From: Synechococcus sp.
GTDB taxonomy: Bacteria > Cyanobacteriota > Cyanobacteriia > PCC-6307 > Cyanobiaceae
NCBI GenBank assembly: GCA_047285805.1
Contig: JBJBCN010000002.1
Location: forward strand, 1,280,001-1,344,000
Reading direction: 5' to 3'
DNA: 64,000 nt
How positions within the stretch are numbered: the stretch's first letter is position 1; every line of letters begins with the position of its first letter. The translations under genes were made by a program, and so were the position numbers. Below are positions 33,458 through 60,205 of the stretch, one piece after another. A model generated the notes under the pieces. The model was not told the origin of the DNA. It worked only from the letters and a program-made list of their open reading frames with translations, and did no database searches.

Positions 33458-33889
33458 ATGGCAGGCTTTCGCAGCGTTCAACTCCTGGGACGCTTGGGCC
33501 TGGGCCTGCTGATGTCCGCGCCAGCGCTGCTGCCGGCCGCCCAGGCCGCCGAAGAACACCCGGCCGCCGCCAGCTCGTCGACGACGCGGCAGAAACAATT
33601 GGCCGAGCACCTCAAGACCCAGGGATTTGTGGTCTACGGGGCTTGGTGGTGCCCCCACTGCAACACGCAAAAGGAACTCTTTGGCGCCGAAGCCATTGCG
33701 TTACTGCCCTACGTCGAATGCGCCCAAGAACAGGAGGGCCGCCAACGCTGCATGGCCGCCAAGGTGCGGGCTTACCCGACCTGGGACTACCAGGGCGAGC
33801 GCCGCGAAGGCTTGATCAGCCTGGAGGAACTCGAGGTGTGGAGCCGCTTCCCCGCCGCTCAATCCGAGGCGGTCACACCGAAGCAGTGA
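33458..33889 (+). CDS. exported thioredoxin-like protein (VKOR-associated type)
   Basis: Signal peptide, YGAWWCPHC, YVEC, AYPTW. Confidence 0.85.
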   Translation: MAGFRSVQLLGRLGLGLLMSAPALLPAAQAAEEHPAAASSSTTRQKQLAEHLKTQGFVVYGAWWCPHCNTQKELFGAEAIALLPYVECAQEQEGRQRCMAAKVRAYPTWDYQGERREGLISLEELEVWSRFPAAQSEAVTPKQ

Positions 33890-34113
33890 ATCAGGGCGTC
33901 GCCCAAGGTGTTGACCCTCTGAAGCTGAGCCTCGTCGGCCTGGACTAGGGCATCCCCATGGACCCAGAGCAACGCGGGCTTGCTCTGGGTGAAGCCATGC
34001 TGCTCGGCAATCGTGAGGATGTGGTCCACACCAGCGTCGGCGTGGATGTGGTCGCGAATGGCCTGATTGATCCCGACCTTAAAAAGGAAGGTGAGAAGAG
34101 CCGCGGCGGTCAC
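33859..34113 (-). CDS. Nif11-like leader peptide family protein
   Basis: LLTFLFKV..NQAIRDHIHA..GVDHILTIAEQHGF pattern; GTG start inferred. Confidence 0.6.
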   Translation of the reverse strand: MTAAALLTFLFKVGINQAIRDHIHADAGVDHILTIAEQHGFTQSKPALLWVHGDALVQADEAQLQRVNTLGDALIHCFGVTASD

Positions 34114-34176
34114 GCAGCGCATCGCGAGAGTCCTCTCCATGCTGAAGAGGACGTCCTGTTTTGGCTGCGACCGCCC

Positions 34177-34386
34177 ATGAAAATGCATGTCGCCAATACG
34201 GTCGCGGTGTCGCTCCTGTCGACGGCCGTCTTGGTGCTGGCGCTGAAGGACAAGTCATGCCCGAGCACCACGCCAGCCGCTGGCACACAAACCGCACCAA
34301 CCGCCCAAGCTGCTGGTGCGGCGAATCCCGCTCCACCGGCTCCAGCGAGCTCCCAGCGTCAACGCCGGGAGCTCGGCAAGTTTTAA
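34177..34386 (+). CDS. small membrane-anchored hypothetical protein
   Basis: N-terminal hydrophobic helix then A/P/T-rich tail. Confidence 0.5.
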   Translation: MKMHVANTVAVSLLSTAVLVLALKDKSCPSTTPAAGTQTAPTAQAAGAANPAPPAPASSQRQRRELGKF

Positions 34387-34744: not shown

Positions 34745-35100
34745 CAAAAAAGCCGGCATCCAAGGGCACCAGCTTCGGAGAAAGTGTTGGGGTCGGAGCT
34801 TCTGAAGGAGGCACACCTGGGGCCAAGGATCCAGGCGTCGAGGGTGATTCTCCCGGGGCACCTCACGCGGCGCAGGTGGAGTGCCGACAGCTCAGACGTC
34901 GATTTGTGTCCGATCTGCCGGCCCGTTCACAATCGGTAGAAGACTGTTGGAGCATTGGCCTTCGGTCAGCTCGCTCCTGGTGACTGGTTCGGTGGAGTGT
35001 CGGTCAAATCCGCCTCCAAGATCTATGGTCCCAATATCGGAGGAATCGAGGCCATGGGCAAGCGGGATGAATACCCATTGCATCCGGGCCAACTCCGATT
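34745..35100 (-). ncRNA. candidate ~350-nt structured ncRNA, copy 1
   Basis: Colinear homology to 54061-54360, conserved stems, ends in hairpin plus T6 at 34745-34775. Confidence 0.6.
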
Positions 35101-35118
35101 GAGAGTGATCAATTGCCG

Positions 35119-35559
35119 TCAGCGCAGATCCTGGTCTCCGACCGAAGCCTGATCGGTGCGAGCCAAGACCGCCTCGCCATCGGTGTAGTGCTTGAACTCC
35201 AGCCAGTTCGCGCTGGGGTCTTGTACAAAAAAGGTGTGATGCTCCAGCGGTCCGCCGGCGTAGCGGCACTTCGGTGTAACCGCGAAGGGACATCCCTGCG
35301 CGACGAGTTGATCGCGGAGCTGCTCCCAACGGTGCAAGGGCGCAAAGACCAATCCGAAATGACGGGGATAGATCCCACCCTGCGGCAGCTCCTGGAGCCC
35401 CGGCGTGGATTGCAGGACCAGCTGATGTCCCTCGAAGTCGAGAATCGCAGCCTGATGACTACGGCGTCCCGGACGGCAGCCCAGGGTGACGACGTACCAG
35501 TCGTGGCTGCGTTGCAAATCGATCGCCGGGATCGAAAGATGAAAGCAAGGGCGCTCCAC
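35119..35559 (-). CDS. VOC/glyoxalase family protein
   Basis: FHLSIPA.DL, YPRHFGLVF, EHHTFFVQDPSANWLEFKHY; GTG start at 35559. Confidence 0.88.
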   Translation of the reverse strand: MERPCFHLSIPAIDLQRSHDWYVVTLGCRPGRRSHQAAILDFEGHQLVLQSTPGLQELPQGGIYPRHFGLVFAPLHRWEQLRDQLVAQGCPFAVTPKCRYAGGPLEHHTFFVQDPSANWLEFKHYTDGEAVLARTDQASVGDQDLR

Positions 35560-35939
35560 CGTGCGCGGCCTAGGCCAGCCCCGGCTTGCAGAGGCGACCG
35601 TTGCAGCCCTGCCAGAACTGGACATAGGGGCTCAGGAGCGCGCCATGCAAGCTGCAAAATCCATGGCAGCTCGGATCCCCTTTGACATAGGGGCAACCCG
35701 AACATTGAAGCTGCAGTTGAGAGCGCATGGAGGCGAGATGAAGATCTCCCCTGGTGCCATGGGCAGGGACTGCGTGGGGAGAGTGGAACACGAGCTTGCT
35801 CCCTTCAGGTGCGTATTCCCGGTCTAGGAACGCCCTTGGGTTTCGGCTAATGAAAAGGAGGGAATCCAAACGGGAGCCTCCAGCCGGGGTGGCCGCAGCA
35901 CGGATCTCTGGCTACGACGGAACCAGTCGAAGTGATGCA

Positions 35940-36302: not shown

Positions 36303-36935
36303 GGCATCAGACAGGTCGACCTGCAGATGACCAGAACCACCGGGCTTAGTTCGCTGAGACCAGCAATGGAACTCCCCACCGCGGCTTAAAGCCGCATTTT
36401 TTTTGCCGATGAACAGAGGAGCTGTTCGAGTGACACAAACCGCCTTACGGCCCTGGCCGCAACGATGAGCGATACGACTTTGGATCGAGGGTCTCGAGAG
36501 AGCTGGCTGGACAGTTCTCACCCGTGGCATTTGCACTGGCACATCCATCAGGGATGTATGTATCGCTTGAGACGCCAGCTCAACTGCAACCGGAGCCATC
36601 ACTGATCTATGCGCAGGCTTCGTGAGTGGAAACAACCTTCATAGCCCGTCCAAGCGACGAGGACTTAGCCCTCTTGTGGCCGACCACCCCTTATACCTGT
36701 TGGATCGGCGGCGACATTTCATTGCCGTGCAGGTGTGAGCTGTGCACTGCTCACCGACGTTTGCGCTGGGAAGAGGAAGAGGGGTGAAGCCCCACAGCCC
36801 CTCCGGCTTCAGAGAGAAACGGCAGAAGGGTGTTGTTGGCGATTGGAGGGACCCAGCCACCGCCAAACGGCTCGAAGTGTTCACCGCTCGTCGTCTGGAG
36901 TTATGGCAACGCATGCGAAATAAGGGAACCGCCCT

Positions 36936-37040
36936 CCGACTCACTGCTCAGTAGTGGGGAGTGTTGAGGTGGGGGAGATTGGCACTCCCCCTTCTCGGAC
37001 AACGACCCATGTACCAGTCGCCTACTGAACGGTTGTGACC
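36936..37040. repeat. three-hairpin repeat family, copy A
   Basis: Core GGGGAGTGTTGAG plus GGGGGAG..CTCCCCC hairpin; matches 42322-42426 and 38328-38425. Confidence 0.75.
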
Positions 37041-37238
37041 TTGGCCCTGGAGAGCTCGCAAGGATTGGTCGCGCAGCCTCTAGGACAAGCGGGGCGGTAA
37101 GAACCAGCTCAGGCTCGTGGACTGCGCACCGTGGAAGTTATGGCAGGCCTAAAACCCTAGGAGCATCAGTAGTTGTACTCAGGATTCCTCTATCTCTCCG
37201 AGAAGTGCGACCGCATGAGAAAACGCAATTCCAGCGGC

Positions 37239-37454: not shown

Positions 37455-38327
37455 CAGTGCTTAGCCGCTACACCTGCATAAACAGAGGCGCAGGAGCTGT
37501 ACAAGGGCATTCAGCACTGTCGTGCTCCACTTTCACTGAAACCTGGTGCAGCGGCAGTGATGTGGACAAACCCAACAAGAATCAAACGATTTCAGCGGGC
37601 GCCCCAATGAGAGCCGGCAGCGCGCGTTGTGCCGAAAGGGCTACAAAAACCTGAGCTTATCAGCCGGCGAAAAGTTTCCTATCCCATTTCGTAAATCGCA
37701 CTTAGTACGCAGACGTAGCGAGACAATATTCAACTCGTCAGAAAGGAATACCCCGATCTACGTAGGCATCAAACTCGTTCATCTTCTTGAGAGCGAAGGG
37801 CTTAAGCTGAACTGACTTAGTCCTCATCTGCTTCATCATTAGAGCCTCATTGCTGTTGCAGGTTGGATTATTCGGCTGGCTCCAAGCTGTTGCCAGTTCA
37901 GCGCAATACCTCTTAACACTTCCGAGCCAGGATAGGATCCTATTGATCCTTGCTGGCAATTAAAAAGAGGATTTCAAGGGGTGATTTCTTCTCCAATTAA
38001 GTCGCCAAGAAAAAACATAAGTGGTCGACCCAAGGGGCGTGGGGCCTCCTCAGATGACGCCCCACAGGTTTATGCGGCGACTCCGGTCGGCACAAGCATG
38101 AGAACCGCCAGAGAAAGTACGGTTGTGGGAACTAACCCCAACAAGCCGACCATTAAAAAGGGCGGGGGTTAACCCACCCTTGGCACCTGACCCAAAGCAA
38201 GCGAGGCAGAGTCTGTTGGCGTCTAAACCCTTGTTAGGATTCCAATCAAGTAGGCAGCATCGGCAAAAGCGCTCAACCTCGGAGAACATAAGAAAGGAGA
38301 CGAGCCAACACCATCACTCTCTCCTGG

Positions 38328-38425
38328 CCATTGCTCATCAGCGGGGAGTGTTGAGTTAGGGGAGCTTGCACTCCTCCGCTGGGATCACGGTGAATAGCTC
38401 GACCGTCTCATTAGCGATTGTGGCC
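38328..38425. repeat. three-hairpin repeat family, copy B
   Basis: GCGGGGAGTGTTGAG core, GGGGAG..CTCCTC hairpin, ACGGT..ACCGT hairpin. Confidence 0.7.
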
Positions 38426-38450
38426 TAGATGCTTGAAGGGAGCTAGGACC

Positions 38451-39215: not shown

Positions 39216-39721
39216 AAAACGTCAACGAGGAAATGCGGTAACAGTTGAGCATGAGGAACCAGGGTTTTACAGGCTTTGTTCTTGCCTACAAACGGCCCCA
39301 CTGGCTTCACAAGCGCTGCATTTGAGGGGTGTTGATGGGCGACTGGGGGAAGCCAGCCACCGCCACAAGGATCGAGGAGTACGCGTCTCCTCCTACCCGC
39401 CACCTGAAATCGCGTTGACATTCTGAACGCCAGAAGCACTGTCGTCGAAGCCTTCTTTAAGCAACTTGCTCATTCCTTTGTGTTTGCCGAGTCGCGCCGG
39501 CCATATCTCGGTGAAGCCGCTAGCCCCCCGAAAAGATTACAACTCTTACAGAAAATTCTCTGGTCGAAATAAAAACCCACTTTTCTCGCCATTAATTCAA
39601 AAGTTCCGTAACTATTCTGGAATATTGATGGCGAACTTCTCTCCATCAATGGCCACAAGTGAAATTTGTGACTAATTTTTATCCAATCGTTTCTTGTGGA
39701 ACCTTGATCTCAACTACCTCT

Positions 39722-41932: not shown

Positions 41933-42321
41933 GCAGCAATGGTGACCTTTGCTCGGAGACGCATCAACCGTCCGTCTTCACCCGTTGATAAGTCCCTTAT
42001 AGAGACGAGCCTGAAGACAAAAAACTCCGACTTCAAAACGAAGGCGTCGGAGGGGTATTGGGCGGGCTCAGGGAGAAATCGGGGAGGGAGTTAGCTCCCC
42101 GGCGGATCGCTGGGACTCGCCAATCAGCGTTCCTCGGATCATTTATGGCAAAGCCCATTGGGGTAGTGCGAGGGCTTGTAATGAAGCTCAACTGCGACTG
42201 CGCACCCACTTACTGGCATTTTGTATCTAAATGAGCCATAACCAAGGAGTGCCGTGCGGTGCACAGGGAGAGAAAGGAGCCGGTTGGTGACCGGCTTTTT
42301 TCTTGCTCGCCAAACAGCTCG

Positions 42322-42426
42322 CCGACCCACTGCTCAGTAGCGGGGAGTGTTGAGGTGGGGGAGGTAGCTGCTCCCCCTTCTCGGGTCACGGGTTCTCTCG
42401 GACCGTGTCCTCAGTGGTTATGGCTC
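42322..42426. repeat. three-hairpin repeat family, copy C
   Basis: First 63 nt match copy A except two substitutions and the 7-nt loop. Confidence 0.75.
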
Positions 42427-43834
42427 TGGTCGCCTTGGAAGTGCAAGGGGCACCATGGCGTTATGAACGCTGATGGCGGACGTGACTGTTCACGCCCAGG
42501 CCATACAAGGCATCCAGCTCCCGGCAAGCGCCGAGAACAGCACCAACGTTTTCTGCTTGAGCGCAACCCCAACGGCCGCTTTGAGCTGACTGACCACCAA
42601 GCAAAATGCTGTCGTCGCTCAGCGAGCCTCTACCACTTTAGCCTCGATCCGAGCCAATGCTTTCTGGATCAACCGATAGCCCTGACTTCTTGAGCCCCCG
42701 CCCCACCGCTGTCGCGCATAAGTGACACATGAGCTCTTGGGGCTGCCTACCAGGATCAGTCACTGCAGCTTGTCAACTCGGTCTCTGGTGACTGAGGCGG
42801 TCTAACGAGGTGTGTCACTTCTAGGTCCAGGACATAAAGCAGAATTTCCCTGTGGGCCAAGGCCGTCATCCCGACTTAAATCGGTATAACCTTCTGCAGA
42901 ATGACCGGGGTGTGGGCTGTTGTGGCCGCAATCGCTTTTGCGACCGCGCATGGATCTCTGAGTTGATCATTCATTACAGCCGCAAGCAATTGCCAGAGCC
43001 GCTGTACTGGGATCTAGCAGGGGAATAAAGAGAAATAGACATGACTGCGTTGAAAAAACAAGGCCGAGCGAGAGAGGCACTGTCAGCAGTAAATAATCCA
43101 ACAACCTATGGTTTAAAGCAGCACCCTGTCCACCGTCTTGATCGATCAGACTCGAAAAGCAGTACACCAAGACGCCTATCGAAAATCCATGAAGCGTTTT
43201 GCTTAGTGATCAATGCTTAAGTATCGGGTCCCATCCGGCAGGGGCCTTTTTTCTGACTTAGCAGAAGTCTCAAGCTTTACCCCCCTCCACCTGAGTTTAA
43301 TAATACGAGGACGAAGGCTATAGAACTAAAGGCAAGAAACAATGCCAAAAGGATTGACTCGAGCTTAAGCATAGCTAACGAGTGCTTAATCAACAAAAGA
43401 ACAATGCGAGATCCAACTTTAGCGCTTGTCGAATCGAAACCAAAACAAAAGACGCCTTTGGTAGTAATACTTGCTACATCAGAATGCACCTAAAGAGGGA
43501 TTCGATCGCATCCCATAGCAAACGAAGCAATGCTTGCCTAGAAAAAGATGCCCAAACCAAGAGGCAACAGGTGCAACATTTAACCAATGACTTGGCAGGT
43601 CATTCCGCATACCAGTTAGCCACCTAAAAGCCATCTATTTGAGCACTTGAAGGACAAATGCAACAAAGATCACGGATGGCGGGCAGAAATTAAGCGGGGA
43701 CTGAGTGACGCGAGGGGCCTAGGCAATCAACAGCCAAACGTAGTGTTTTCTGGATGGGAAAGCGAACCGACTTCCTCTTTTGGCTTGCCAGCAAGTCCGT
43801 TCTCCCATTGGGGCTGCCATCCAGTAAAGCCTCA

Positions 43835-45223: not shown

Positions 45224-45522
45224 AGCAAGACCAGAAGCAGGTGGCAGAGCAGGGCATTGAGTCAATTCCCACGGAAAGCACTATAGACATAATTGACAGA
45301 CAAAAACAAACCAAGATGCTGATGTCAATATCAAGCTGTCTTAAGACTTTCACTCATCCTTGAGAACAAGGTCAACTAAACGAATAATGCCCCTCAACTC
45401 AGTACAGGCTAATGTCTCAATTGTCACAACCTGATGCATCGATTGACGCCGCTCCCCTGATTCTGTACAGCAAGATTGATCCGAAGTCATTTTTATGACT
45501 TACCTCTTTGGTGTGAGGACCA

Positions 45523-47133: not shown

Positions 47134-47149
47134 CCCTCACAGAATCACT

Positions 47150-47206
47150 GGCCTCCGAAAGGAGGCCTTTTTTATTGCCATAAAAAGCCCTCGGCTAGGA
47201 GGGCTT
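47150..47206. terminator. back-to-back intrinsic terminators for the porin (+) and the small secreted gene (-)
   Basis: GGCCTCC-GAAA-GGAGGCC-T6 and AAAAAGCCCTC..GAGGGCTT. Confidence 0.85.
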
Positions 47207-47218
47207 CAGAAGTAAGAA

Positions 47219-47449
47219 CTACCAACAATTCTCACCTTCTCCAATCGGCACACAAACCTCTTCTTGCTCGGCTTTCTCCTTGAAAGCTTTTAGCTCAGCA
47301 TCTGGCTTGGCCTCATCATCAACTTCTTGGTCAGTCGTCCACTCTTGAAAGCCTCCTTGAGGCGAAGACTGGGAGAATGCAGGAATGGCTGCCTGGGTCG
47401 AAAGAGCTGCTGTCGCCGCCAAAAGAATTGCAGCAGGGGATCTTTTCAT
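47219..47449 (-). CDS. small secreted acidic protein
   Basis: Signal peptide; C-terminal VCVPIGEGENCW. Confidence 0.7.
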   Translation of the reverse strand: MKRSPAAILLAATAALSTQAAIPAFSQSSPQGGFQEWTTDQEVDDEAKPDAELKAFKEKAEQEEVCVPIGEGENCW

Positions 47450-47518
47450 TTGGGTAATTGGTTTGACTCAATTATAGGACTTTCTGACCCATAAAGAGCC
47501 CCTGTAAACACAGTACTA

Positions 47519-48180
47519 TCAGCTTGAAAGTCTTCGTAGAGCATTGGTGTAAGCCTGAAACACAAGATCGAGTTCTTCACTCCTCCCATGCTTTGCAAGG
47601 AGTCCCTTTGCCCCTGCATTTAAAGAAAGTAGGATTTGACGATCTTCCGCCGACTTGAGGTAGCTTTTTATCCGGACGCCACAAGCGGACCTCACTCCTT
47701 CTTCTATCTTACAAAGACGATGAATCGGTGAGTTTGGGTAGATGAAGAAATCGCCTATTTGTATAAGCTAGCTTTCGTCGAAATCAAGCCTTCAACTTGA
47801 AGCTGCCCCCTCATAGGCATCAAGATCACTTACGAAAACCGTAAATGAAAGATCTCTTCTGCGATAAGCGGTGAATGGGTTGTCTAAATACCAACCATAA
47901 CCAGATTCACACTTTGAAAGGATCATGCCGTGGATTCGCTCGGTATTGAAAAACTTGTACAAGGAGTTGGGTCAGTATCTTTTCGTTGATAAATCAGGAA
48001 ATTCTTTGGCAAGACTCGCTTGAAAGATATAGCTGCTGATTCTTTTTGACGGGTAATGCCTGAGCGCTGGCCCCCAAGCATCCATCCGCCAACTGGCGAG
48101 GTTCTAGACAGGTTCTTACTTGAACTTTTTAGACTTATAGCTGGAAATTACCTCTGCGGCAAGGACATCCATACGCGCAT
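47519..48180 (-). pseudogene. piuC: PKHD-type Fe(II)/2OG hydroxylase (PiuC/YbiX) pseudogene
   Basis: Fragments in shifting frames: KKNQQL, RIHGMIL..GYGWYLDNPF..RRDLSFTVFVSD.DAYEGG, IYPNSPIHR, LDLVFQAYTNALRRL*; divergent from futA. Confidence 0.8.
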
Positions 48181-50370: not shown

Positions 50371-50470
50371 GCCGTCGAGCAGGGGAGGAAGCTCTTTGCG
50401 TGCAGTTTTGCGTGCAACCGGTTTTCGAGCTTCTGACGTAATCGCCAGATCGGTTGCGGCGGAATGATTG

Positions 50471-50508
50471 AAGGGGCCTTCCAGCCCCAGCGGATCATTT
50501 GGTTGATA
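50471..50508. repeat. att-like direct repeat, left copy
   Basis: AAGGGGCCTTCCAGCCCCAGCGGATCATTTGGTTGATA. Confidence 0.8.
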
Positions 50509-50637
50509 AGACTGAGTGCCCCCAAAGCGGCACAGTTCTTTTCAGGCAGATGTCTTTCTAAGCCTGAGTTTACGAAAGCCACCCACAGCAAACGAAAGCT
50601 TGCGGGAGCTATTTTATCCGGAGAATTATCCGGGGAG

Positions 50638-51876
50638 ATGGCCGCCGAAGCTTGGGAAAAGGGTTTCCGCGCTGCGATAAAAACCGGGAGACAGGGGTGG
50701 GGAGTAAGCAACGACAAGAGCACAGGCCGAGTGCGCCTAAAACTCCAGTTCCCAAAGGCGGGGGACTGGCCAAGCAATAGCTCGGTCAACCTGCCTTACG
50801 CCTGGACGCCAGCGTCGATCAACCCGGTGATCCAACTCGTCAATGCGGCCTATGGACCTGTCATGGAAGGTCAGGTCCCGCTCAAGGCGGCGATTGAGAA
50901 CCTGCTAGCCATAAGCGATCAAAAAGCTGATCTGGTGCGTACAGCCTGGCCAGGCATTGCGAGATCCTTCCGCACCAAAAAGCTAAGCACAGGAAATCGA
51001 ATAGCCGATAGCACTTACAGCGCTTCCTATGGGCGCTACATAGAAGTGGCCTTGCAACACCTGCAGGGTCCCAAGTCTGCTCAAACAGGAAAAGCGCTGA
51101 TCGAGCGTGTACTAATCCATCAACGAACCAACAAGAAGCCCGGCAAGCGTTTCGGAGAGCAGCTCACCCCCTGGATCGATCAGCCGAAATCCCGCATGCA
51201 GTGCTGCCTAGCGCTGAAACTGTTCCTTGAGTTTGCGGTTGCCGAGCATCGACAAGCGCAGTCCTTTCTGATCATCGAAAAGGACTACCTCCAGCTTCGT
51301 GGTGGTGATGGAAGGACAAGAAAGAAGGCAGTCCTTACAGATGCGCAGATATGCGAGCTCATCAGACTGCTCCCAGAGCACTGGAGCAACGTAGTGAAGG
51401 TGTGCCGATTGTTTGGCGTAAGGCCATGGGAGATCAACTTCATCGAACGACGCATCAACCCGGGGGGCGAACAACAGCTATTCGTCAGGAAGGGCAAAGA
51501 AGTCACCAGCCGAAGCGGTGTCAAAGAAGAAACTGAGCCCCGCTGGTTAGAAGCGGTGGCCATTGATGGAACGACATTTGGACTTGTCGAGAAGTGGGAG
51601 AGCTTGAAGCTTCCCGCAAGAGTCAGCGGGGCGAACCTAGGCGCCAGGTTGCGAAGGCTCCAGTACTGGAATTGTCTCGTTGAGGAATTCAAGGCCAACG
51701 GAGAATGGCTGCGTCCGTACTCGTTCCGAGACACCTTCAGCGTGCGTGCGCACGACCTGAACATCAGCAGCACAAACATCGCTCAAGCAATGGGCCACAG
51801 CGTTGAGGTCCATCACCGAAGCTATAGGACTTCGGAGTGGAAGGGCGTCAGAAAAGCCTTCCTCCGAGCTAGCTAA
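50638..51876 (+). CDS. tyrosine integrase of element 1
   Basis: GVRPWEI, RPYSFRDTFS, IAQAMGHSVEVHHRSY; paralog of 60206-61495. Confidence 0.9.
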   Translation: MAAEAWEKGFRAAIKTGRQGWGVSNDKSTGRVRLKLQFPKAGDWPSNSSVNLPYAWTPASINPVIQLVNAAYGPVMEGQVPLKAAIENLLAISDQKADLVRTAWPGIARSFRTKKLSTGNRIADSTYSASYGRYIEVALQHLQGPKSAQTGKALIERVLIHQRTNKKPGKRFGEQLTPWIDQPKSRMQCCLALKLFLEFAVAEHRQAQSFLIIEKDYLQLRGGDGRTRKKAVLTDAQICELIRLLPEHWSNVVKVCRLFGVRPWEINFIERRINPGGEQQLFVRKGKEVTSRSGVKEETEPRWLEAVAIDGTTFGLVEKWESLKLPARVSGANLGARLRRLQYWNCLVEEFKANGEWLRPYSFRDTFSVRAHDLNISSTNIAQAMGHSVEVHHRSYRTSEWKGVRKAFLRAS

Positions 51877-53174
51877 TGGGACGCCCTGCAAAAAACGAAA
51901 TCGGCAACACTTATGGCTTGCTGACAGTCGTTAGCGCCGGTCCCAAAAAGGGAAGTGCTACAGCTTGGATGTGTAGATGTGCTTGCGGAAATCAAGAGCT
52001 AATCCACTGCAGTGGGACGGAGCTAAGGGGAGGAGGTCGTAAAAGCTGTGGATGTATCAACCAGACACGACTGGAAGATCTGACTGGCCAGGTATTTGGA
52101 CACCTAACGGTTGTGGAGCGGGGTCCCAACATTGGGCGAAGACCAGGCTGGTCTTGTCAATGCGATTGCGGCAGCCCAAAACTTGTTCTTCTTAGAGCAG
52201 ACCAACTAAAGAAAGGAATCCCTGGAGACTGTGGCTGCTCGAAAACACCTTATACGAAAGGTATTTATGGTCCTTTTATCGATCGCCGGACGGCACTAAA
52301 GCAGGGGTTAACGCAGTACTTCCCTGGTTCTTTATGCGCTAAAGGGCACCTATCGCCAAGAATGACCTCTGGAGGATCATGCATGGTCTGCATACGCGAG
52401 CTGGCAGCAAAGAAACAGAAGGAGGGCTATTTCCGCGAATATGCAGCCAAGCGCAGAAAAACAGATCCCGACTGGAAGGCGAATAAAGCACGAGTAGCTC
52501 GAGAGTCATACCATCGTCATAAAGACGACGAGGGTGCCAAGGAAAAGAGAAGAGATTGGTACGAAAAGCACAAGACGACTGACTGGTACAAGGAGGCTTC
52601 AAAACGAGCCAAGGCCAAGTTCGTAGCTAGTGGGAAAAAAGCCCAGGCAGATCGGGCGTATAGCCAGAGCCAGGCAGGAACGGTTGCACGCATCAAAGCT
52701 CGCAGGGCGTGGCGAGAAAAGTTTGAGGCTGAGAAGGGCATGCCCATCAGCAGCTGGAGGCTGAAGAACGACCCTCAGTTCAAATTGCATGTCCGTTTAA
52801 ATCAACGCATCAGCGACGTCTTGAAGAGGCAGGGGGTCGTGAAAGCATCAAAAACAGTTGACCTAATAGATGCTGAAATCGTCCACTTCAAGGCTTATCT
52901 CGCAGCCAACTGGGTCGAGGGCATGAGCTGGGAGAACTACGGTCGAGATGGTTGGCACGTTGATCACATACGACCTTGTGCAAGTTTTGACCTCACGGAT
53001 GAGGACCAGCAACTCGTTTGCTTCAACTGGAGAAATCTAAGGCCCATGTGGGCCACCGAGAACATCTCCAAGAGCGATAACTATGACCCTGCAGATGAAG
53101 TCGAATGGGCTGAGATGATGGTTGAGCTTGGCTTTGAGGGTGAGCTTTTTCTCCTCTATACGACCAACGAATGA
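51876..53174 (+). CDS. HNH endonuclease with N-terminal Cys-rich repeats
   Basis: Two G..(Y/F)G.LTVV..W.C.C.CG..CGC repeats, YF.G..C.KGH..R..C..C, C-terminal MSWENYG..WHVDHIRP..NL.P.W..EN..K. Confidence 0.88.
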   Translation: MGRPAKNEIGNTYGLLTVVSAGPKKGSATAWMCRCACGNQELIHCSGTELRGGGRKSCGCINQTRLEDLTGQVFGHLTVVERGPNIGRRPGWSCQCDCGSPKLVLLRADQLKKGIPGDCGCSKTPYTKGIYGPFIDRRTALKQGLTQYFPGSLCAKGHLSPRMTSGGSCMVCIRELAAKKQKEGYFREYAAKRRKTDPDWKANKARVARESYHRHKDDEGAKEKRRDWYEKHKTTDWYKEASKRAKAKFVASGKKAQADRAYSQSQAGTVARIKARRAWREKFEAEKGMPISSWRLKNDPQFKLHVRLNQRISDVLKRQGVVKASKTVDLIDAEIVHFKAYLAANWVEGMSWENYGRDGWHVDHIRPCASFDLTDEDQQLVCFNWRNLRPMWATENISKSDNYDPADEVEWAEMMVELGFEGELFLLYTTNE

Positions 53175-53380
53175 AGAGATCTGGCACCTGATCTCTTCTC
53201 AGTTTTCACCAGGCTTTAGCATGGTTAACGGGGAAGGGGGAATCTCTACCAACTGCGGATCTTTGCCCTAGCGTTAACTCACTTTTTAACCTGACGCTAG
53301 ACGAACCGTGCGCCTCCGGATGACCCACATAGATTGACCCAACAAGGACCCGACTAAACAGATTCAGTATTATGACTGAA

Positions 53381-53839
53381 TCATTCTTCGATAAACCTTG
53401 TTGTAGGCATGCCCTTGACAGAGGCAACTGTAACCCAGACGATCGTCGGCTCTTTACCGACATTTTCTACATAATGGGGCTCGTTGGCACCTTCAACAAA
53501 TGCCTCACCGGGCTTGAAAACAGTTTTAACTTCAGTCCCGTCAGGCTGAACCCGAGTGTTGAGTAATGAACCAGATCTGACACCTTGCACGTAAACCATC
53601 ATTGGAGCAGGGTGAGTATGCAGGGGAATCTTTCCTCCAGCAGGAATTTCAACTCGATAGAGGCGCAGCTCTGGTTTGCCTGAGGGGTACTTAAGAGCAG
53701 TTCCGTTCAGTGTTTCTGAACTACTAAGGATCTCCTGAATCGCAGGTTTCGTTGAAGTTGACGACGTTTCACCTTTTTGATTAGGACTACATGCAGCCAA
53801 TGCCAGGGCGACGGTTCCGAACGCGAGAAGGCGCTTCAT
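53381..53839 (-). CDS. cupin-domain lipoprotein
   Basis: Lipobox LAAC; IPLHTHP, FVEG..EPHYVEN. Confidence 0.85.
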   Translation of the reverse strand: MKRLLAFGTVALALAACSPNQKGETSSTSTKPAIQEILSSSETLNGTALKYPSGKPELRLYRVEIPAGGKIPLHTHPAPMMVYVQGVRSGSLLNTRVQPDGTEVKTVFKPGEAFVEGANEPHYVENVGKEPTIVWVTVASVKGMPTTRFIEE

Positions 53840-54060
53840 CCAAGTTGAGATGCTGGGTTGATTCTGCACCAACTAGTCGCAACAAGCTACGGAATAAGCC
53901 CGAGGGAGTGATGCTCCTCGGGCGGAACTGCACCGCTGCAGGAGCTTTCGCGGTTATGCGATCGCGTCCTGCATCGCAGCGAAGCTTTCAGGGTGTCTGA
54001 CGGGGGAACGCTCATCCGAGCCTCTGAGCGGCCTCCCAGTACAGGCACGCTGTCTTGACT

Positions 54061-54452
54061 ATCGGAGGTCCGTCCTTGAAAGGCAATGCGCATAAAGCCT
54101 GATTGCCCTCTGTTCGAATCAGGCCGATGGTGGGTCCATCGATCTCGGAGGCGTTTTGGACGACACTCCACCTCAGAAGCATCAGTGAGCTAGCTGACTG
54201 CAGACCCCTGCTCCACAGCTCTTTCTCATCCACCACGGGCACGTCCTAAATCTCGGTTCTGCCGGGGGACACTCCATCCGCACCCAGTGAGGTGCCCTAA
54301 GGAGCAAGAAGGCCCGCCAACTGGAAGCACGGCCCCAGGCGTCGAGATCAGAAGCTCCATCCATCTCTTTCGTCCATCAAGCAGTGGGTGCATCCCATGC
54401 ATGAACGACCTAGGTAGGCCGTCTCTTCCACCGGGGAGGGGCGGCCTTCCTT
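54061..54452 (+). ncRNA. candidate structured ncRNA, copy 2
   Basis: Homologous to the reverse complement of 34790-35100; ends in GC-rich hairpin AGGCCGTC..GGCGGCCT. Confidence 0.6.
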
Positions 54453-54510
54453 AATGAGTCGTAATTGGCGTTGCGGAGCGTCGGTCAAAATAGGGTGTCG
54501 CTTCAGAACT

Positions 54511-54798
54511 ATGCGCAAGCTTCTGCTCGGGACATTCGCAGTCTTGGCGGCTGCCCTTCCACTTGCGGCGCAGGAACTTTCGAGCCCCGACGGGACCGCT
54601 CCTGATGCGCCAGCACCTGCTGTCGAGCCACCCTCCATCTGGCTCGTTTTGCGATACGGAGTAGGCGGTCCTGGAGCGCTAGAAAAAATAGAGATGCGAG
54701 ACATGGCGCAATGTGAAATGCAAGGTGCCATTTGGGAGTCAAGTAAGCGCCTCAGTGAAGGTGGTTACACAGGTTTTGAGTGTATGGAAGGCAAATGA
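54511..54798 (+). CDS. small secreted hypothetical protein
   Basis: Signal peptide, P/A linker, IWLVLRYG..CEMQG..FECMEGK. Confidence 0.65.
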   Translation: MRKLLLGTFAVLAAALPLAAQELSSPDGTAPDAPAPAVEPPSIWLVLRYGVGGPGALEKIEMRDMAQCEMQGAIWESSKRLSEGGYTGFECMEGK

Positions 54799-55322
54799 AA
54801 AGATTTAGAGCCGCATTATTGGTATCCGCGTCAATCTCATGTCTTGGCATGAATCCTGCTTTCGCCGACTTTGGAGATGCAGACTTTCCTGAAGCCCTGT
54901 TTAACGACGGTCCCCGCAGCTATCACGATGCTTGGTGCCGAAGGATAAAGAACAAGTGTCGGGTGCGCTTCCAGGGAAAGGGAATGTGGGTCGAGGGGCA
55001 AGGCGGGATTCAGCGCTCGCAACTAAAAAGTTTCAGAACAGATTTTGACGGAAACGAGTTCTATAACTATGTGGACTACATATCGTCGGAAGGCCGCCTT
55101 AAAAGTGCGTTATTCATGTTTTCAAACTTTGAAGCCAACAGGGAGTTCCTTCGCGCAGTGGTGAGGTGGCAGCGAATGGATGCAAGCCCAGTGCCGAACT
55201 TTCGTTTTCCAGCAAGCCAGGGTCCACAGGACACGCATGGTCGAGATAAGAGCTACGGCAGGAACAACAATCCTTATGCCAATCCGCCAATTACTGACTG
55301 GAAAGAAAAGACCACGCCCTAG
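54795..55322 (+). CDS. secreted hypothetical protein
   Basis: Signal peptide ending PAFA, ATGA-coupled to the upstream gene, DAWCRRIKNKCRVRF. Confidence 0.7.
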   Translation: MKRFRAALLVSASISCLGMNPAFADFGDADFPEALFNDGPRSYHDAWCRRIKNKCRVRFQGKGMWVEGQGGIQRSQLKSFRTDFDGNEFYNYVDYISSEGRLKSALFMFSNFEANREFLRAVVRWQRMDASPVPNFRFPASQGPQDTHGRDKSYGRNNNPYANPPITDWKEKTTP

Positions 55323-55370
55323 CGGTAGGCCTGGTTGGTCGTAATCAGCCTTGCGGTGTCACAGACTTGC

Positions 55371-55730
55371 TCACGCCATCAGCGAATGAATGATCTTAAT
55401 CAGTTCTGCTTTGGTGAGCTTCTCTAAGGGCGGTGGTGGTGCTTGAACATTATTTTCCTTTAACAACTTACATAGAGCTGACTTGTTCAGGCCAGAGAAT
55501 CGCTTTAGTCCGTTCTCTTTACAGAGACTTCGCAGGGTCTTCACCGACTGCTTTTCAAAGCTGCCTTTGCCGAGGAGCAAACTTAGTCTGTCTTCACCCT
55601 TAAGTCGGCCTGCGCCTGAATTGCCTTGATTCGCTTTTTGAAGTTCTTCGCTGATTTCGCGCAGGCTGCGTGCATCCGATTGCGCAACCTCTCTTAAGTT
55701 GGCCCTAAGGGCTTCAGAGATCTTTCCCAT
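55371..55730 (-). CDS. HeH (Rho-N/SAP-like) domain protein B2
   Basis: FEKQSVKTLRSLCKENGLKRFSGLNKSALCKLL; paralog of 56266-56640. Confidence 0.75.
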   Translation of the reverse strand: MGKISEALRANLREVAQSDARSLREISEELQKANQGNSGAGRLKGEDRLSLLLGKGSFEKQSVKTLRSLCKENGLKRFSGLNKSALCKLLKENNVQAPPPPLEKLTKAELIKIIHSLMA

Positions 55731-56223
55731 CAGACTCCTTCAATTTGGCTTGAATCGACTGTTGCTTCTCGATAAGTGTTTCTAGCTTCTCTTTTGATCT
55801 TGTCCAGCGTGTGATGAACTCGATTACAGCCTTCATCAGGTTCCCAAGGAAGTTGCCGCCCTGATAGGTACGACGACCACTTCTGTAAGCCTCGAATTGA
55901 GTCACCAGATCATCTCCGGCATCTTCTAGCTCTCCAATAACTCCGGTCACAATCTCAAGCATTTCATAAGCCTCTGCTCGTACAGATGCTTCACGCTCGG
56001 CTATCGATCTGAGTTTCCCCTCTAGCTCAGACATGGCCGCGCGACTGCGTTGTGCTTGCCCGCGAAATTGTCCTCGACTCACCATGAGCCCCCTGTAGGA
56101 GCTTCTTAAATCCAAATAAACGGATTCCAGAGCCTCACGCTCTAGCTGACTTACCTCGGCAGGAAATGCGCTAGTTGAAGGGAGCATGCTGGTCATGGGG
56201 GTTGGTTCGTCTTTTTGATTCAT
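55714..56223 (-). CDS. coiled-coil protein A2
   Basis: SRGQFRG, ELEDAG, LMKAVIEFI; paralog of 56627-57091. Confidence 0.75.
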   Translation of the reverse strand: MNQKDEPTPMTSMLPSTSAFPAEVSQLEREALESVYLDLRSSYRGLMVSRGQFRGQAQRSRAAMSELEGKLRSIAEREASVRAEAYEMLEIVTGVIGELEDAGDDLVTQFEAYRSGRRTYQGGNFLGNLMKAVIEFITRWTRSKEKLETLIEKQQSIQAKLKESDGKDL

Positions 56224-56265
56224 GAGCTTCTAGAGAAGAATCACAAGGGGGAATGACTCATCACA

Positions 56266-56640
56266 TCAATTTGAGAATTGCCTTTGGGAATCGATCCAGT
56301 ACGCCAGGAGTTGTTCGTAGCTGGGCGCTAGGGGTGCGTGGTTGTTTATCAGGAATGTGATTATGTCTGCCTTACGCTTCGGCTTACTTCTGTTCGGTAG
56401 GTTCATTCGGGTTGCTATCGCCCTCAGCTCGCCGACCTTTAGTTTCGAGAATTGATCTTCCTTGGCTGGAGGGAGTGCACGAAATGCCTCTGGTGCGAAG
56501 GCTTTTGCATCTACCTCCTCTCTTAAAGCGGCGAGAGCCTTGTTCTGGGAGTCAATATGAGATCCAATATCTCGTGCGAGTTGTTTATCAAGACTATTTA
56601 TCTCCTCAATAGCTGCTATTAGGCCATCAGCTATCGACAT
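56266..56640 (-). CDS. HeH (Rho-N/SAP-like) domain protein B1
   Basis: FSKLKVGELRAIATRMNLPNRSKPKRKADIITFL. Confidence 0.75.
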   Translation of the reverse strand: MSIADGLIAAIEEINSLDKQLARDIGSHIDSQNKALAALREEVDAKAFAPEAFRALPPAKEDQFSKLKVGELRAIATRMNLPNRSKPKRKADIITFLINNHAPLAPSYEQLLAYWIDSQRQFSN

Positions 56641-57091
56641 TGCTTTCACCCCTCACTGCGGCGAGACGAGCTTTTTGCTCTTCTCTGGCCTCTCTGGCTT
56701 GCTGCATGGCCAAACGGAAGGTCTGAATGAAAGCCCGCACTGCTTCCACGAGTGCACTGCCTGAAAACAAGCCCCAAGCACCGTTGTTTTCAAAAGCGTC
56801 TTCCAATGCGACGCCGGCGCCCTCAAGTTCCTTGAGTACTTGGCCGTAGCCCAAGACAATCTTGTTTAACTCTGCTTTTTGACGGAGGGTGAGGTCCATC
56901 TTTTCCTGGAACTCCAGCAGCTCTGCTTGGAGCTGAGCGATATGGGCCTTTTGCCTCGTGACAGTTCCCTTGTACTGACCCCTCGCGCGATTCAGGTACT
57001 GAGCTTCGTCGAACAGACGGTTGTAGAGCTTCAGGACATCGGCCCCAGGGTGGATGGGGTACCGGTTCCGCGTGATTTGTACTGGAGTCAT
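56627..57091 (-). CDS. coiled-coil protein A1
   Basis: ARGQYKG, ELEGAG, LVEAVRAFI. Confidence 0.75.
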   Translation of the reverse strand: MTPVQITRNRYPIHPGADVLKLYNRLFDEAQYLNRARGQYKGTVTRQKAHIAQLQAELLEFQEKMDLTLRQKAELNKIVLGYGQVLKELEGAGVALEDAFENNGAWGLFSGSALVEAVRAFIQTFRLAMQQAREAREEQKARLAAVRGESNVDS

Positions 57092-57173
57092 CGCTGTTCA
57101 GCCTGGTCCTTATCCGAAGTTTCTAGCACACAAGGTGTCTACACCCCGTGCTCACCCGGGCTACACTTATTTC

Positions 57174-57332
57174 ATGCCCACGACCAAGCCCCGAGTCGGC
57201 TGGATCATTGATCCCACGCTGCTCGACAAGCTCAAGGAGCTTTCCGATAAGAGCGGCCGTACCGTTCCCAAAGAGGCTGAACAGGCGATTAAGAACTGGC
57301 TTCAGCTCCACGGGAAGCTCCCCGTCGATTGA
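57174..57332 (+). CDS. ribbon-helix-helix (Arc/CopG-like) regulator
   Basis: 52 aa, KPRVGWIIDPTLLDKLKELSDKSGRTVPKEAEQAIKNWL. Confidence 0.75.
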   Translation: MPTTKPRVGWIIDPTLLDKLKELSDKSGRTVPKEAEQAIKNWLQLHGKLPVD

Positions 57333-57559
57333 AGCTCGGTCCTGGCCGCTGATCATTCGTAGGGCTGGTTACGTCAGTGGACTTGGCCCGTCTCTGTCAG
57401 TTCAGCGGCAATAAAAAACCGCGGTGGCTTCTCCGCGGCTTAGATCTCCCTACCCGGGACTCGTCCCAGATGTCGTCATGGTGCCGGCGGTGGGAGCCGC
57501 TTCAATAGGGACGCCTACTCATCTCTGGTAGAGGTATCGCAACCGGATAGGCCATTCGA

Positions 57560-57658
57560 GAAGGTTTTGAAGGTTTTAAAGGTGCTGTCCGCACAGGCAC
57601 GTGACTCAAGGCGAGTGATGCCCTTGGGGGAGGGGCCTTCAAAACCTTCAAAACCTTC
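57560..57658. repeat. inverted iteron-like repeats, candidate replication origin
   Basis: GAAGGTTTTGAAGGTTTTAAAGG and CCTTCAAAACCTTCAAAACCTTC, 22/23 inverted match, next to the rep gene stop. Confidence 0.65.
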
Positions 57659-57664
57659 AGTCAC

Positions 57665-59035
57665 TCAGCTACTCATTGCTTTGAGCACCTCCTCGACAGG
57701 GCGAAAGAGTGATGCGGGGGCACCTCCCCGCCTCCCGTTCGAGTCTCTGAACCCGTCCTCAACGATCAGATGTTTGCGCTCTAAAGCCAGGAGCGTCTCC
57801 CTGGCCTTTTGAGGAGCATTCACCTCAATCCCCAAGGCATTGCCTAAGTGAACCGCATCCATACCCCTCTTGGTGGAGAGGTAGTGATGACATAGGTCTT
57901 TGAGCGCCTTGTACTGACGATCTGTGAGGTCGTCGAGCACTCCCTGAATTGCAGCTTGCCTTGCAACCTCCTCGCCGGATCCATGAAGGATCCAGCCAGT
58001 GTTGGTTTGCTCTATCAAGAGGTCAATTGGAGCTGACTCGCGGCCCTCTGCCATCAGCTTGCTCCGCTTGTCTCGTTGAGCGAGCGGGTTGTCATCGCCG
58101 TCCCCAAGAGACGCGATAGCAAGGGTTTGGCTCACGGCTCCGGGCAGAGCGTTATTGCCTCGACTGGCCTCTGAGGCCCGCAATGCACCAGGCCGTTTTT
58201 TTGCGTGGTGGATCAACAGCAGCGTTGCCTCGTGGGGAGCAAGTGCTTCTGTCAGATCGATGCAGGGGTCAGCAAAGGAGGCATCGCACTCCTGCAGCCC
58301 AAGCCTGCTGGTGAGTGCGTGATAGCTGTCGAGCAAAACGATCAACCCTGGGTAGCGGGTGCAGTAACCGGCAATTCGCTCGATGCCTTCCTCATCCATT
58401 GAAAGGGGCGCACCCTTATGGAAGAGGCTGACGATTGACGGGTGCATGCTCCGGTCTGGGTAAAGCAGGCCGGCACGCTTGAGGCATATCGCCCAGTCCC
58501 GTTGAGGTTGGTCGCTGCCAACGATCAGGATTTTGGGGTCCGGCCATGGATGCAGAGGCTGTCCCAAGAAGGACGTTTCACCACGGACCAGAGCGCCAAG
58601 GACGGCGCACATCAGCCGTGATTTGCCGACCTTTGGAGGGCCAACGAACAGGTTGCTCGTTGCCTTAAGCAGGACGTTCTCCCAGAGCCAAGGTGCTTCT
58701 TCGAAGGAAAGCTTTCCGCCTTGTGGGATGGGCTCAACGGCGCCCATCAGCTTTCGCCGCTCTTGCCCAAGTAGGCGGCGCATTTCGTCGTCTCGGACGC
58801 GCGTCTGAAGTTCAGATGCGGTTCGGCGTAGGTGGATAAGCCGCTGATGGCTGGGAATGGCCTCATCGCAAAGGAGATCCCGCGCCTTCCTCTGCAGGGT
58901 GCGTAGGTCCTCTGCTGCCGATGGCTTGCGTCGAGGGGTGGGGTCAACGCGTTTGAGCTGACCCTGAACGCGTTGTTGCCGTTCCCTTTGATCAAACGCG
59001 TCTGAGTTGTCGAGATATGCAAGTGGATCGCTCAT
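57665..59035 (-). CDS. RepA/AAA_25-type replicative helicase with C-terminal wHTH-like region
   Basis: PWLWENVL, GPPKVGKS, IVLLDS, LLIHHAKK, ASRG. Confidence 0.85.
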   Translation of the reverse strand: MSDPLAYLDNSDAFDQRERQQRVQGQLKRVDPTPRRKPSAAEDLRTLQRKARDLLCDEAIPSHQRLIHLRRTASELQTRVRDDEMRRLLGQERRKLMGAVEPIPQGGKLSFEEAPWLWENVLLKATSNLFVGPPKVGKSRLMCAVLGALVRGETSFLGQPLHPWPDPKILIVGSDQPQRDWAICLKRAGLLYPDRSMHPSIVSLFHKGAPLSMDEEGIERIAGYCTRYPGLIVLLDSYHALTSRLGLQECDASFADPCIDLTEALAPHEATLLLIHHAKKRPGALRASEASRGNNALPGAVSQTLAIASLGDGDDNPLAQRDKRSKLMAEGRESAPIDLLIEQTNTGWILHGSGEEVARQAAIQGVLDDLTDRQYKALKDLCHHYLSTKRGMDAVHLGNALGIEVNAPQKARETLLALERKHLIVEDGFRDSNGRRGGAPASLFRPVEEVLKAMSS

Positions 59036-59292
59036 CTCGACCTCCTCGCCCACCGGGCCATTCGGAGGCAGCCGATCGGGTCTTGGCGCTCCAGAAGCGT
59101 TGCTGCTCGGTCGTAATCCGCTGAAGACCAGGTTTGTTCGCTGGTGAGACGCAGCAGCTTGCCGGTCAGATCAACGGAGTCCAGAGGCCGCGAAAAATCT
59201 CCGTAATGCCGCCAGCGGTAGCGCTTAGCGACAATTAGGTTGTCGTTAGACATTTCTTCGCGACCCCCAGCGCCAACTGGGGGTTTTTTCAT
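59032..59292 (-). CDS. hypothetical protein in the replication operon
   Basis: Overlaps both neighbours by 4 nt; start uncertain. Confidence 0.55.
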   Translation of the reverse strand: MKKPPVGAGGREEMSNDNLIVAKRYRWRHYGDFSRPLDSVDLTGKLLRLTSEQTWSSADYDRAATLLERQDPIGCLRMARWARRSR

Positions 59293-59552
59293 GCCCGAAC
59301 CTGCACGAGGGGCTGGTGCAGACCGAAGGTTTCTACTGAAGAAGCAGGCATACGCCGAAAACCTGTAAAGGCGGCTTCAGTGGTGGCGATATTCCACTGG
59401 AGTGATCCTGCTGTTGTCATTCCAGACCATCGGTAGTGACTTCCCTCGACAAATGGGCTGCGCCCATCACGACGCAGCTTCAACAGCGTCTGCCTGTGAA
59501 TACCAAGGTGGTCAGCCATTACGGCCGAACTCACCCAACTTTGAATTTTCAT
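59289..59552 (-). CDS. excisionase-like HTH DNA-binding protein
   Basis: MADHLGIHRQTLLKLRR..SPFVEGSHYR; paralog of 61875-62144. Confidence 0.7.
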   Translation of the reverse strand: MKIQSWVSSAVMADHLGIHRQTLLKLRRDGRSPFVEGSHYRWSGMTTAGSLQWNIATTEAAFTGFRRMPASSVETFGLHQPLVQVRA

Positions 59553-59560
59553 TGGGGGGG

Positions 59561-59779
59561 CTAGATAGACCCCTTCGCCCGTAGAGCAAGCTGAAATGCC
59601 GGAACGGTCAGGAATTTCCTGAGAAGAGGATGCTCCTCTAAGGGGGGGTACAACCTGGTAGTGCGCTCCAACAGCTCAAGCGTCTGCATAAACCTTGTTG
59701 GAGTCCAACCTTTCGGAATCCGAATGGTCTGACCTCCAACGTGCACTGCATTGACGCGTTGCTTCTGCTTGCCCGCCAT
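59561..59779 (-). CDS. hypothetical protein
   Basis: First gene of the leftward replication operon. Confidence 0.5.
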   Translation of the reverse strand: MAGKQKQRVNAVHVGGQTIRIPKGWTPTRFMQTLELLERTTRLYPPLEEHPLLRKFLTVPAFQLALRAKGSI

Positions 59780-60005
59780 AGCGAAGGGGAATGAACAGAT
59801 GCCTCGCGCCCAACGGACTCATATCGGTCCATCGTGTTGAGCCTGTGCGATTTAGGAACGCCGGTGCAGAGCAGCTGCGTTCAGCAGGCTCACGATAACG
59901 GCTGTTTTCGATCGTGAAGCCAAGAGATCCTTTATCCGGAGATTTATCCGGAGACAGACCGAACGCGATCGCAACGCGCGCCAGAACTATTGCCACACAA
60001 TTAAA

Positions 60006-60043
60006 AAGGGGCCTTCCAGCCCCCATGGATCATTTGGTTGATA
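60006..60043. repeat. att-like direct repeat, right copy and junction with element 2
   Basis: AAGGGGCCTTCCAGCCCCCATGGATCATTTGGTTGATA. Confidence 0.8.
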
Positions 60044-60205
60044 GGCATGATCCACAGGATTACGGAAGGAGTGGCCGCAAGCGATTTCGCCGTAAAGCCA
60101 GTCAGAGACTAATCCCAAAGACAGTCCTTGACAGTCGTAGGCGGTCAGACAAAACTAATTTGTCGGAAATTTGTCGGAAATTTGCCCAGGCGGAACCTGT
60201 CCTCC

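Follow-up and report, generated by a model that had tools for sequence, protein, structure and literature searches.

A picocyanobacterial multi-copy RNA, very likely Yfr103, carries a conserved and probably translated mini-ORF next to a covarying helix

Results

Two copies of the element and their surroundings

The window analyzed here, i.e. a 64,000-nt stretch of a Synechococcus sp. genome (contig JBJBCN010000002.1, positions 1,280,001 to 1,344,000), contains two related elements on opposite strands (Table 1). Copy 1 sits behind a glyoxalase-family gene, where a lower-GC island borders on its surroundings, and its upstream flank is also kept in a relative, G023. The same relative keeps a short ORF found downstream of copy 1 (33859-34188), which has no Pfam match and looks Nif11-leader-like. 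Copy 2 lies in an integrative element with integrase-like, HNH, cupin, AAA_25, and HTH_17 genes. Two integrative elements are arranged in tandem at the tmRNA gene (window 49408-60052 and G000:C2:1340006-1349641, G000 being the host genome), with tmRNA-derived repeats at 50471-50508, at 60006-60052, and at the tmRNA gene itself. A 1.1-kb integrase block occurs twice at 90% (window numbering, 49408-50515 and 68282-69396), the second tandem element has a 657-aa ORF at 62161-64134, and the AAA_25 block (57665-59292) has an 84% copy at G000:C2:549767-551394, which suggests a related element elsewhere in the genome. The porin (SLH + OprB) region at 45503-47673 has a 99.6% duplicate over 2172 nt at G000:C2:916547-918718. 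Dispersed repeats in the island (36450-37120, 38170-38430, 39290-39395, and 41980-42460), with many 70-90% copies elsewhere in the genome, gave no Rfam match at gathering score.

A preliminary description had aligned the two copies and proposed a long structured noncoding RNA of ∼350 nt, of unrecognized family, that moves with islands and satellite elements. All 13 blocks on which this alignment was built are present in the same order in the reverse complement of 34790-35100 and in 54061-54360, and the six non-zero differences in their spacing (−4, 1, 2, 8, −2, and 2) include no multiple of 3. The similarity between the two copies is real: their local alignment score is 77 vs. a mean of 18.9 and a maximum of 32 in 1000 dinucleotide shuffles, and nhmmer aligns them with E values of ∼3e-17 to 5e-17. 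The genome holds eight copies instead of two, one with an internal deletion. The copy at G000:C2:278703-278942 (L031:3703-3942) lacks ∼75 nt of core sequence, with the invariant hairpin and in-frame stop among the parts lost, and is likely decaying.

Table 1. Features of the two copies and their neighborhood (window coordinates)
Feature	Position	Strand	Basis or remark
Copy 1, predicted transcript, yfr103 family, ∼281 nt	34746..35026	-	-10 spacing, synteny spacing, terminator
Copy 1, promoter palindrome, -55 to -32 (DNA element)	35058..35081	-	matrix scan
Copy 1, -10 box, invariant A and T	35033..35038	-	invariant columns, fixed distance to start
Copy 1, Shine-Dalgarno (SD) GGAGG	35013..35017	-	near-invariant in family
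Copy 1, putative mini-ORF 1, 13 codons, TTG start, M-T-D-T-P-P..., stop within helix P2	34966..35007	-	
Copy 1, folded domain: P1, P2, irregular helix P3, variable stem, hairpin	34795..34977	-	covariation and folding
Copy 1, long-range closing helix P1	34977-34973 with 34799-34795	-	
Copy 1, helix P3 invariant blocks	34946-34954 and 34816-34824	-	
Copy 1, hairpin in folded domain	34858-34873	-	
Copy 1, intrinsic terminator, hairpin + T6	34746..34776	-	sequence
Glyoxalase/VOC-family gene upstream of copy 1	35119..35625	-	neighbor; PF00903, E 1.4e-7
Copy 2, predicted transcript, yfr103 family, ∼316 nt	54138..54453	+	long-tail form without most of variable stem
Copy 2, promoter palindrome, -55 to -32	54083..54106	+	matrix scan
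Copy 2, -10 box	54126..54131	+	family pattern
Copy 2, SD	54147-54151	+	
Copy 2, putative mini-ORF 1, 10 codons, TTG start, M-D-D-T-P-P...	54156-54188	+	
Copy 2, putative mini-ORF 2, 6 codons, stop codon's last base = terminator stem base	54397..54417	+	
Copy 2, terminator-like GC hairpin, weak U tail	54417..54453	+	sequence
∼9.5-kb integrative element carrying copy 2 (approximate ends)	50471..60043	.	tmRNA-derived direct repeats on both sides

Distribution of the family

With copy 1 as the BLAST query, 18 of 24 genomes of the same genus were matched and none of 16 genomes of other families. A sequence model built from 35 copies matched 131 of the 151 genomes of the family, with 1-10 matches per genome. 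Two genera, g28 (0/11) and g23 (0/7), were unmatched by this model; for g28, which we infer to be high-light Prochlorococcus, a broader model that did find its positive controls matched 0 of 39 genomes. A phylum-wide search matched 4 of 151 genomes, three within the family and one marginal (E = 6.7e-4) in a genome that is 9% contaminated. These searches gave no clear match outside the family. At least 121 stretches were matched in named records, which include Synechococcus WH7803 (only two matches) and RCC307, Prochlorococcus MIT 0707 and MIT 0916, and records named Cyanobium, Vulcanococcus, and Aphanothece; among the matches listed, a few records carrying labels of other bacteria are probably misbinned. 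In one genome (L119, G095:C1:2267908-2269138), three copies are arranged in tandem with a spacing of ∼450 nt.

Viral and phage collections gave no true family match (a second viral pattern and phage blastn both returned 0), four viral pattern matches being discarded as chance since the rest of the element is absent. Copy 2 does lie within an integrase-bearing element, which fits the proposed movement with islands and satellites, but the gene is near-universal and multi-copy in the family and has no true match in the viral and phage collections searched, so that mobility is one way in which copies spread and not the defining trait. In a word search of sequencing runs no run exceeded 0.12 of the words, small shares not being evidence. 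Rfam 15 found only tRNA in the whole window at gathering score; the best E value was 1.2 for copy 1 and 0.04 for 10 homolog loci, far under gathering.

The comparisons below use 205 copies drawn from 286 hits, after exclusion of copies with short flanks or <60% cover; related copies are not independent of one another. At 97 loci examined with a crude gene caller, the next likely gene downstream was on the opposite strand in 56, on the same strand in 26, and absent in 15. Clustering of the flanking genes at these loci revealed no general partner and no downstream family beyond 7 loci. These 97 loci thus show no consistent co-oriented gene that could be regulated in cis.

Both copies very likely belong to the Yfr103 family

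Yfr103 was reportedly first described by Voigt et al. in 2014. Synechococcus CC9605 has seven Yfr103 paralogs of 290-328 nt, which make up 55.2% of the primary-transcript (mdRNA-seq) reads of this strain in a Red Sea sample; homologs occur in WH7803, RCC307, and low-light Prochlorococcus, a palindrome lies at −29 to −58 from the start site, and the function is termed enigmatic (Hou et al. 2016, PMC5069720). Ordinary RNA-seq puts the top paralog roughly on a par with psaA (5,027 vs. 5,245; PMC5069720), so the 55% share is specific to primary-end enrichment. According to the tables of the same paper, Yfr103b directly precedes the 30-aa gene Syn_n012, with a distance of 444 nt from the start site of the RNA to the ATG. 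This next gene has a start site of its own, and Yfr103g has one weak antisense start inside (14 reads).

Both window copies are very likely members of this family, which the preliminary description had not recognized. A homolog of the window element precedes the same 30-aa gene (29 of 30 residues equal), and the distance from predicted start to ATG is 451, 452, and 443 nt at the three loci measured (L301, L302, and L303, respectively), compared with the published 444. The palindromes of the window copies are at −55 to −32 vs. −58 to −29 in the literature. Length from start to terminator has a median of ∼330 nt (5-95% range 275-376) in the 121 copies with a called terminator; the transcripts predicted in the window measure ∼281 and ∼316 nt, copy 1 being slightly shorter than the published 290-328 nt. 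The likeness extends to size class, several paralogs per genome, palindrome, range, and neighbor gene and its spacing; deep cover by relatives' contigs in marine metatranscriptomes is a weak further hint. On the other hand, the Cyanobium, Vulcanococcus, and Aphanothece records lie beyond the published range, and Yfr103, which is absent from Rfam 15, is called noncoding with no ORF given in the section and table of PMC5069720 considered here, whereas a conserved mini-ORF is found here.

Promoter, transcript ends, and expression

In 201 of 205 copies, the spacing between the invariant A and T of the −10 box and a conserved start base is constant. Another −10 candidate, near 35105, was dropped in favor of the invariant box at 35033-35038 once the spacing to the published start site had been checked. 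The GCAAT/ATTGC arms fall before the predicted start, at −55 to −32, in agreement with the published palindrome, so the first blocks of the element as initially delimited are promoter DNA; its ∼350 nt are not one RNA but ∼75-85 nt of promoter followed by the predicted transcript. The ATCGG/CCGAT pair, proposed as an RNA stem, is also upstream of the predicted start and would therefore not be part of the RNA. The palindrome is likely an operator: when the genome was scanned with its matrix, seven of the top eight hits were family promoters. The eighth, the sole strong hit outside them, was the rpsU terminator and was rejected. A strict palindrome pattern is found in 115 of 205 copies, with only a half-site in many Cyanobium-type copies. 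CGRE1 was considered as the operator and discarded, as it is 21-22 nt long and flanked by GTTG/GTTA, whereas the family palindrome is 24 nt and differs.

Both copies end in a 3′ hairpin, as first described, with T6 in copy 1 and a weak U tail after the GC hairpin of copy 2. A strict scan called a hairpin-plus-U terminator in 121 of 205 copies, and a GC hairpin with weak tail is present in 65. A stop codon before type-A terminators was seen in some copies and is not general. Five loci (L105, L137, L168, L266, and L271) have, 3′ of the core, a further conserved tail type of >100 nt with no nearby terminator, and Cyanobium-type copies have yet another.

RNA contigs of relatives (mostly 80-95% alike) from four marine runs of four studies are deep over 34788-35027, which is a weak hint of expression, as contig depth gives neither strand nor level. 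In these runs the promoter bins are empty in three, and one contig of depth 8 crosses them in the fourth; uncovered parts carry no meaning in this survey. One small-RNA contig match ends at 35027.

A covarying helix closes the folded domain

Homologs do covary, and the top-ranking pair belongs to helix P1, in which the ORF end meets the 3′ end of the core. It is A:U or G:C with weighted counts of 85 and 42 (score 0.71, s.d. 0.039), and an independent 60-copy alignment has AU in 36 and GC in 22 of 60. On the tree the P1 pair shows four joint changes; stems in the variable middle show 6-14 per pair. Overall, 79.4% of the cells of the 60-copy alignment pair, vs. 76.0 ± 0.3 when shuffled (0/500), and a slide −1 control equals the covariation score (0.152). 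P3 and the 5-bp hairpin vary too little for covariation to prove them.

Folding is less distinctive. P1 has a modest predicted probability of 0.35-0.41, most of the SD site is taken up by pairing (unpaired 0.20), and the folding energies are unremarkable (z −1.23 and −1.49). The CTGG/CCAGG hairpin that had been proposed has a mean pairing probability of ∼0.17 and zero covarying pairs. RNAalifold on an alignment that included the promoter (A2) paired the SD with the 3′ end, with two-sided changes in 1 of 28 pairs, and covariation later favored P1; a flip switch between SD and 3′ end was unsupported (0.11 to 0.15 when P1-P2 was blocked). The initial view of a long structured noncoding RNA is therefore retained in part: there is an RNA gene on the proposed strands with covarying helices, but its 5′ quarter is promoter and a conserved mini-ORF lies inside.

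Conservation of two mini-ORFs

The family shares an SD site followed by 7-14 codons that would read M(T)xDTPP (mini-ORF 1). Of the 205 copies, 204 have GGAG and an in-frame start (ATG or TTG) ahead of D-T-P-P, compared with 12 and 0 in the other frames. Since 105 of these copies came from patterns allowing codon wobble, only the other 100, found by patterns blind to codons, were used for a second test, and 99 of them have the in-frame ATG or TTG. In this 100-copy set, minority bases number 8, 5, and 109 at codon positions 1, 2, and 3, respectively. On a tree built without the ORF, changes at the three positions of D-T-P-P are 7, 5, and 50, and 57 codon changes give rise to 11 aa changes. Subfamilies differ by a one-codon insertion, and an earlier in-frame stop is found in 15 of 17 frameshifted copies vs. 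26 of 187 in-frame copies. GGAG is present before only 107 of the 1668 long ORFs of the genome. A few copies lack Pro-Pro or Thr, and the third codon is CCA in 97 of 99, i.e. a nucleotide-level constraint. Taken together, this coding-type pattern argues that mini-ORF 1 is probably translated, and the transcript is likely not strictly noncoding.

After Pro-Pro the predicted peptide is free, ending within 14 codons in 203 of 204 mini-ORFs; an early stop after 7-10 codons in 41 of the 204 means that P2 does not contain the stop in every copy. Between Pro-Pro and P1 the linker sequence is hypervariable, but its length is 12 nt in 175 of 205 copies, about as far as the leading edge of a ribosome reaches.

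A second ORF of six codons touches the terminator in 65 of 205 copies, among them copy 2 and not copy 1. With the GC hairpin as sole anchor, an ATG is found at −20 in 51 of 51 distinct upstream sequences and a TAG on the first base of the stem in 49. Mini-ORF 2 varies mostly at third positions and has a weak SD site.

A literature search with five mini-ORF peptide strings gave no match, and nothing on Yfr103 was found in the literature searched on small proteins and ribosome profiling. A mini-ORF on Yfr103 was likewise not found in the literature searched; Voigt 2014, Gierga 2012, or Figure S3 of PMC5069720 may mention one.

Discussion

How the RNA might work

We tentatively favor a stand-alone structured RNA whose function is the gating of its domain by ribosomes. 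Its own promoter with a palindromic operator and its own terminator would yield a 280-330-nt RNA from the predicted start site. The strong SD and a start codon 16-25 nt from the 5′ end would recruit a ribosome. Acidic residues followed by Pro-Pro may cause it to pause or abort at codons 4-7, ∼12 nt before P1, so that the domain stays closed, whereas a ribosome that reaches the stop would unwind P1-P2 and lay the invariant core open, with altered RNA stability or hold on a partner. The geometry is supportive, in that the last codons and the stop sit within the covarying closing helix. Working in trans, the RNA may thereby sense or buffer the state of ribosomes (EF-P, Pro-tRNA, Mg2+), i.e. translation stress, with the peptide as a by-product. 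An analogy is offered by Salmonella mgtQ, an 8-codon ORF acting in cis, in which Asp2/Glu5 destabilizes ribosomes and switches overlapping stems (PMC8092293). Mini-ORF 1 has two prolines, not three, which counts against stalling, and Thr before a proline run suppresses stalling (PMC4176338). The 41 early stops, the modest predicted stability of P1, and the unsupported SD flip also weigh against the gate. More doubtful is a fuller version, in which the translation-aborting Asp/Pro mini-ORF of a free-standing switch would gate a partner-holding domain and mini-ORF 2 would gate the terminator in one third of the copies; the RNA would then play for ribosome state the part that 6S RNA plays for RNA polymerase. 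No such class of free-standing ribosome-gated RNA is described in the literature searched.

Two other functions are unlikely. The transcript might be a very stable mRNA that works through its micropeptide, M(T)xDTPP, with the conserved N terminus of the peptide binding a protein. The strong SD, the conservation of the D-T-P-P residues despite synonymous change, and the free C terminus of peptides of 7-14 residues would suit it. Some peptides would however be only seven residues long, the ∼200 nt downstream contain longer invariant blocks than the ORF, and a peptide has no need of a fixed 12-nt spacing to a covarying helix. The RNA might also base pair in trans, its invariant CUCCA-type motifs binding the SD sites of target mRNAs, in which case mini-ORF translation would serve only to shield the RNA or adjust its amount. 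We consider this improbable as well. It has three anti-SD-like motifs (one of them invariant) and an operator-controlled promoter in its favor, together with the precedent of Yfr1, which is predicted to bind at an SD site (PMC12873609). The invariant motif is nevertheless predicted to be partly paired in P3, and GGAG sites are on few host genes.

Attenuation in cis, in which the position of ribosomes on the mini-ORFs would set read-through into the downstream gene, is quite improbable. A leader-peptide anatomy (SD and short ORF overlapping a stem) speaks for it, as do the 65 of 205 copies in which the last base of a second ORF is also the first of a weak terminator, but downstream genes are mostly on the opposite strand, with no common family beyond 7 of 97 loci, and the gene after Yfr103b has its own published start site. 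It is very unlikely that the family is selfish or addictive, i.e. a toxin-antitoxin locus or a small mobile unit that islands and satellites carry along. Although there are 1-10 matches per genome, copy 2 sits in a tmRNA-bounded element, and near-identical copies share their flanks, the element is near-universal in the family with no true viral or phage match, the upstream flank of copy 1 is the same in G023, and no conserved toxin-like ORF is found in or beside the copies. The small hydrophobic ORF that is the hallmark of type I toxins was not found, only the polar 7-14-codon and 6-codon ORFs being conserved. The weak folding z-scores would speak for a protein gene in decay, or for a resemblance that arose by chance, yet such an origin is hardly credible in view of the shuffle test, the invariant blocks with out-of-frame indels, the compensatory pairs, and the pattern of promoter and terminator, in keeping with the preliminary description.

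Significance and comparison with known systems

The RNA itself is already known and named; what is new, and open to test, is the presence of the mini-ORFs and the way they are coupled to structure. The mini-ORF, its constant distance from a covarying helix, and the dedicated operator make the enigmatic function of Yfr103 testable in a culturable strain, and the start codon, Pro-Pro, and the P1 pair offer precise handles on it. If the gated-switch reading is true, marine picocyanobacteria have as their dominant primary transcript something other than a plain noncoding RNA. An Rfam model for the family is warranted and would prevent repeated rediscovery.

Translation-sensing short ORFs are known in the Mg2+ transport operons of Salmonella, mgtL being one. 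Its mgtQ, mgtM, and mgtP resemble mini-ORF 1 in having a strong SD, <20 codons, Asp/Glu and Pro codons, and an ORF over a stem (PMC8092293); they act in cis on a downstream gene, whereas here the RNA has its own terminator and no consistent downstream gene, and we claim no homology. The picocyanobacterial RNAs in Rfam, i.e. Yfr1/Yfr10, Yfr2 (Cyano-1), Cyano-2, and the Downstream-peptide, glnA, and manA motifs, differ in that no Rfam match is obtained here. Yfr2 is multi-copy and has a palindromic operator, CGRE1, starting near −55 (PMC6191309), unlike the 24-nt palindrome of this family. Prochlorococcus Yfr6 and Yfr9 have ORFs of 33 and 44 aa (PMC2518516, PMC6596454), compared with 7-14 aa here, and Yfr8/9 are described in high-light Prochlorococcus, whereas this family is unmatched in the 39 genomes of g28, inferred to be that group. 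The mRNAs of the type I toxin-antitoxin systems hok and aapA have long-range pairing between their 5′ and 3′ ends. Like the present RNA, they are multi-copy, with a long-range helix and an SD that is mostly paired, but no hydrophobic toxin ORF and, the one weak antisense start inside Yfr103g aside, no conserved antisense gene was seen here. The dual-function RNAs SgrS, RNAIII, and SR1 are likewise structured and a few hundred nt long, carry a small ORF, and often lie in islands.
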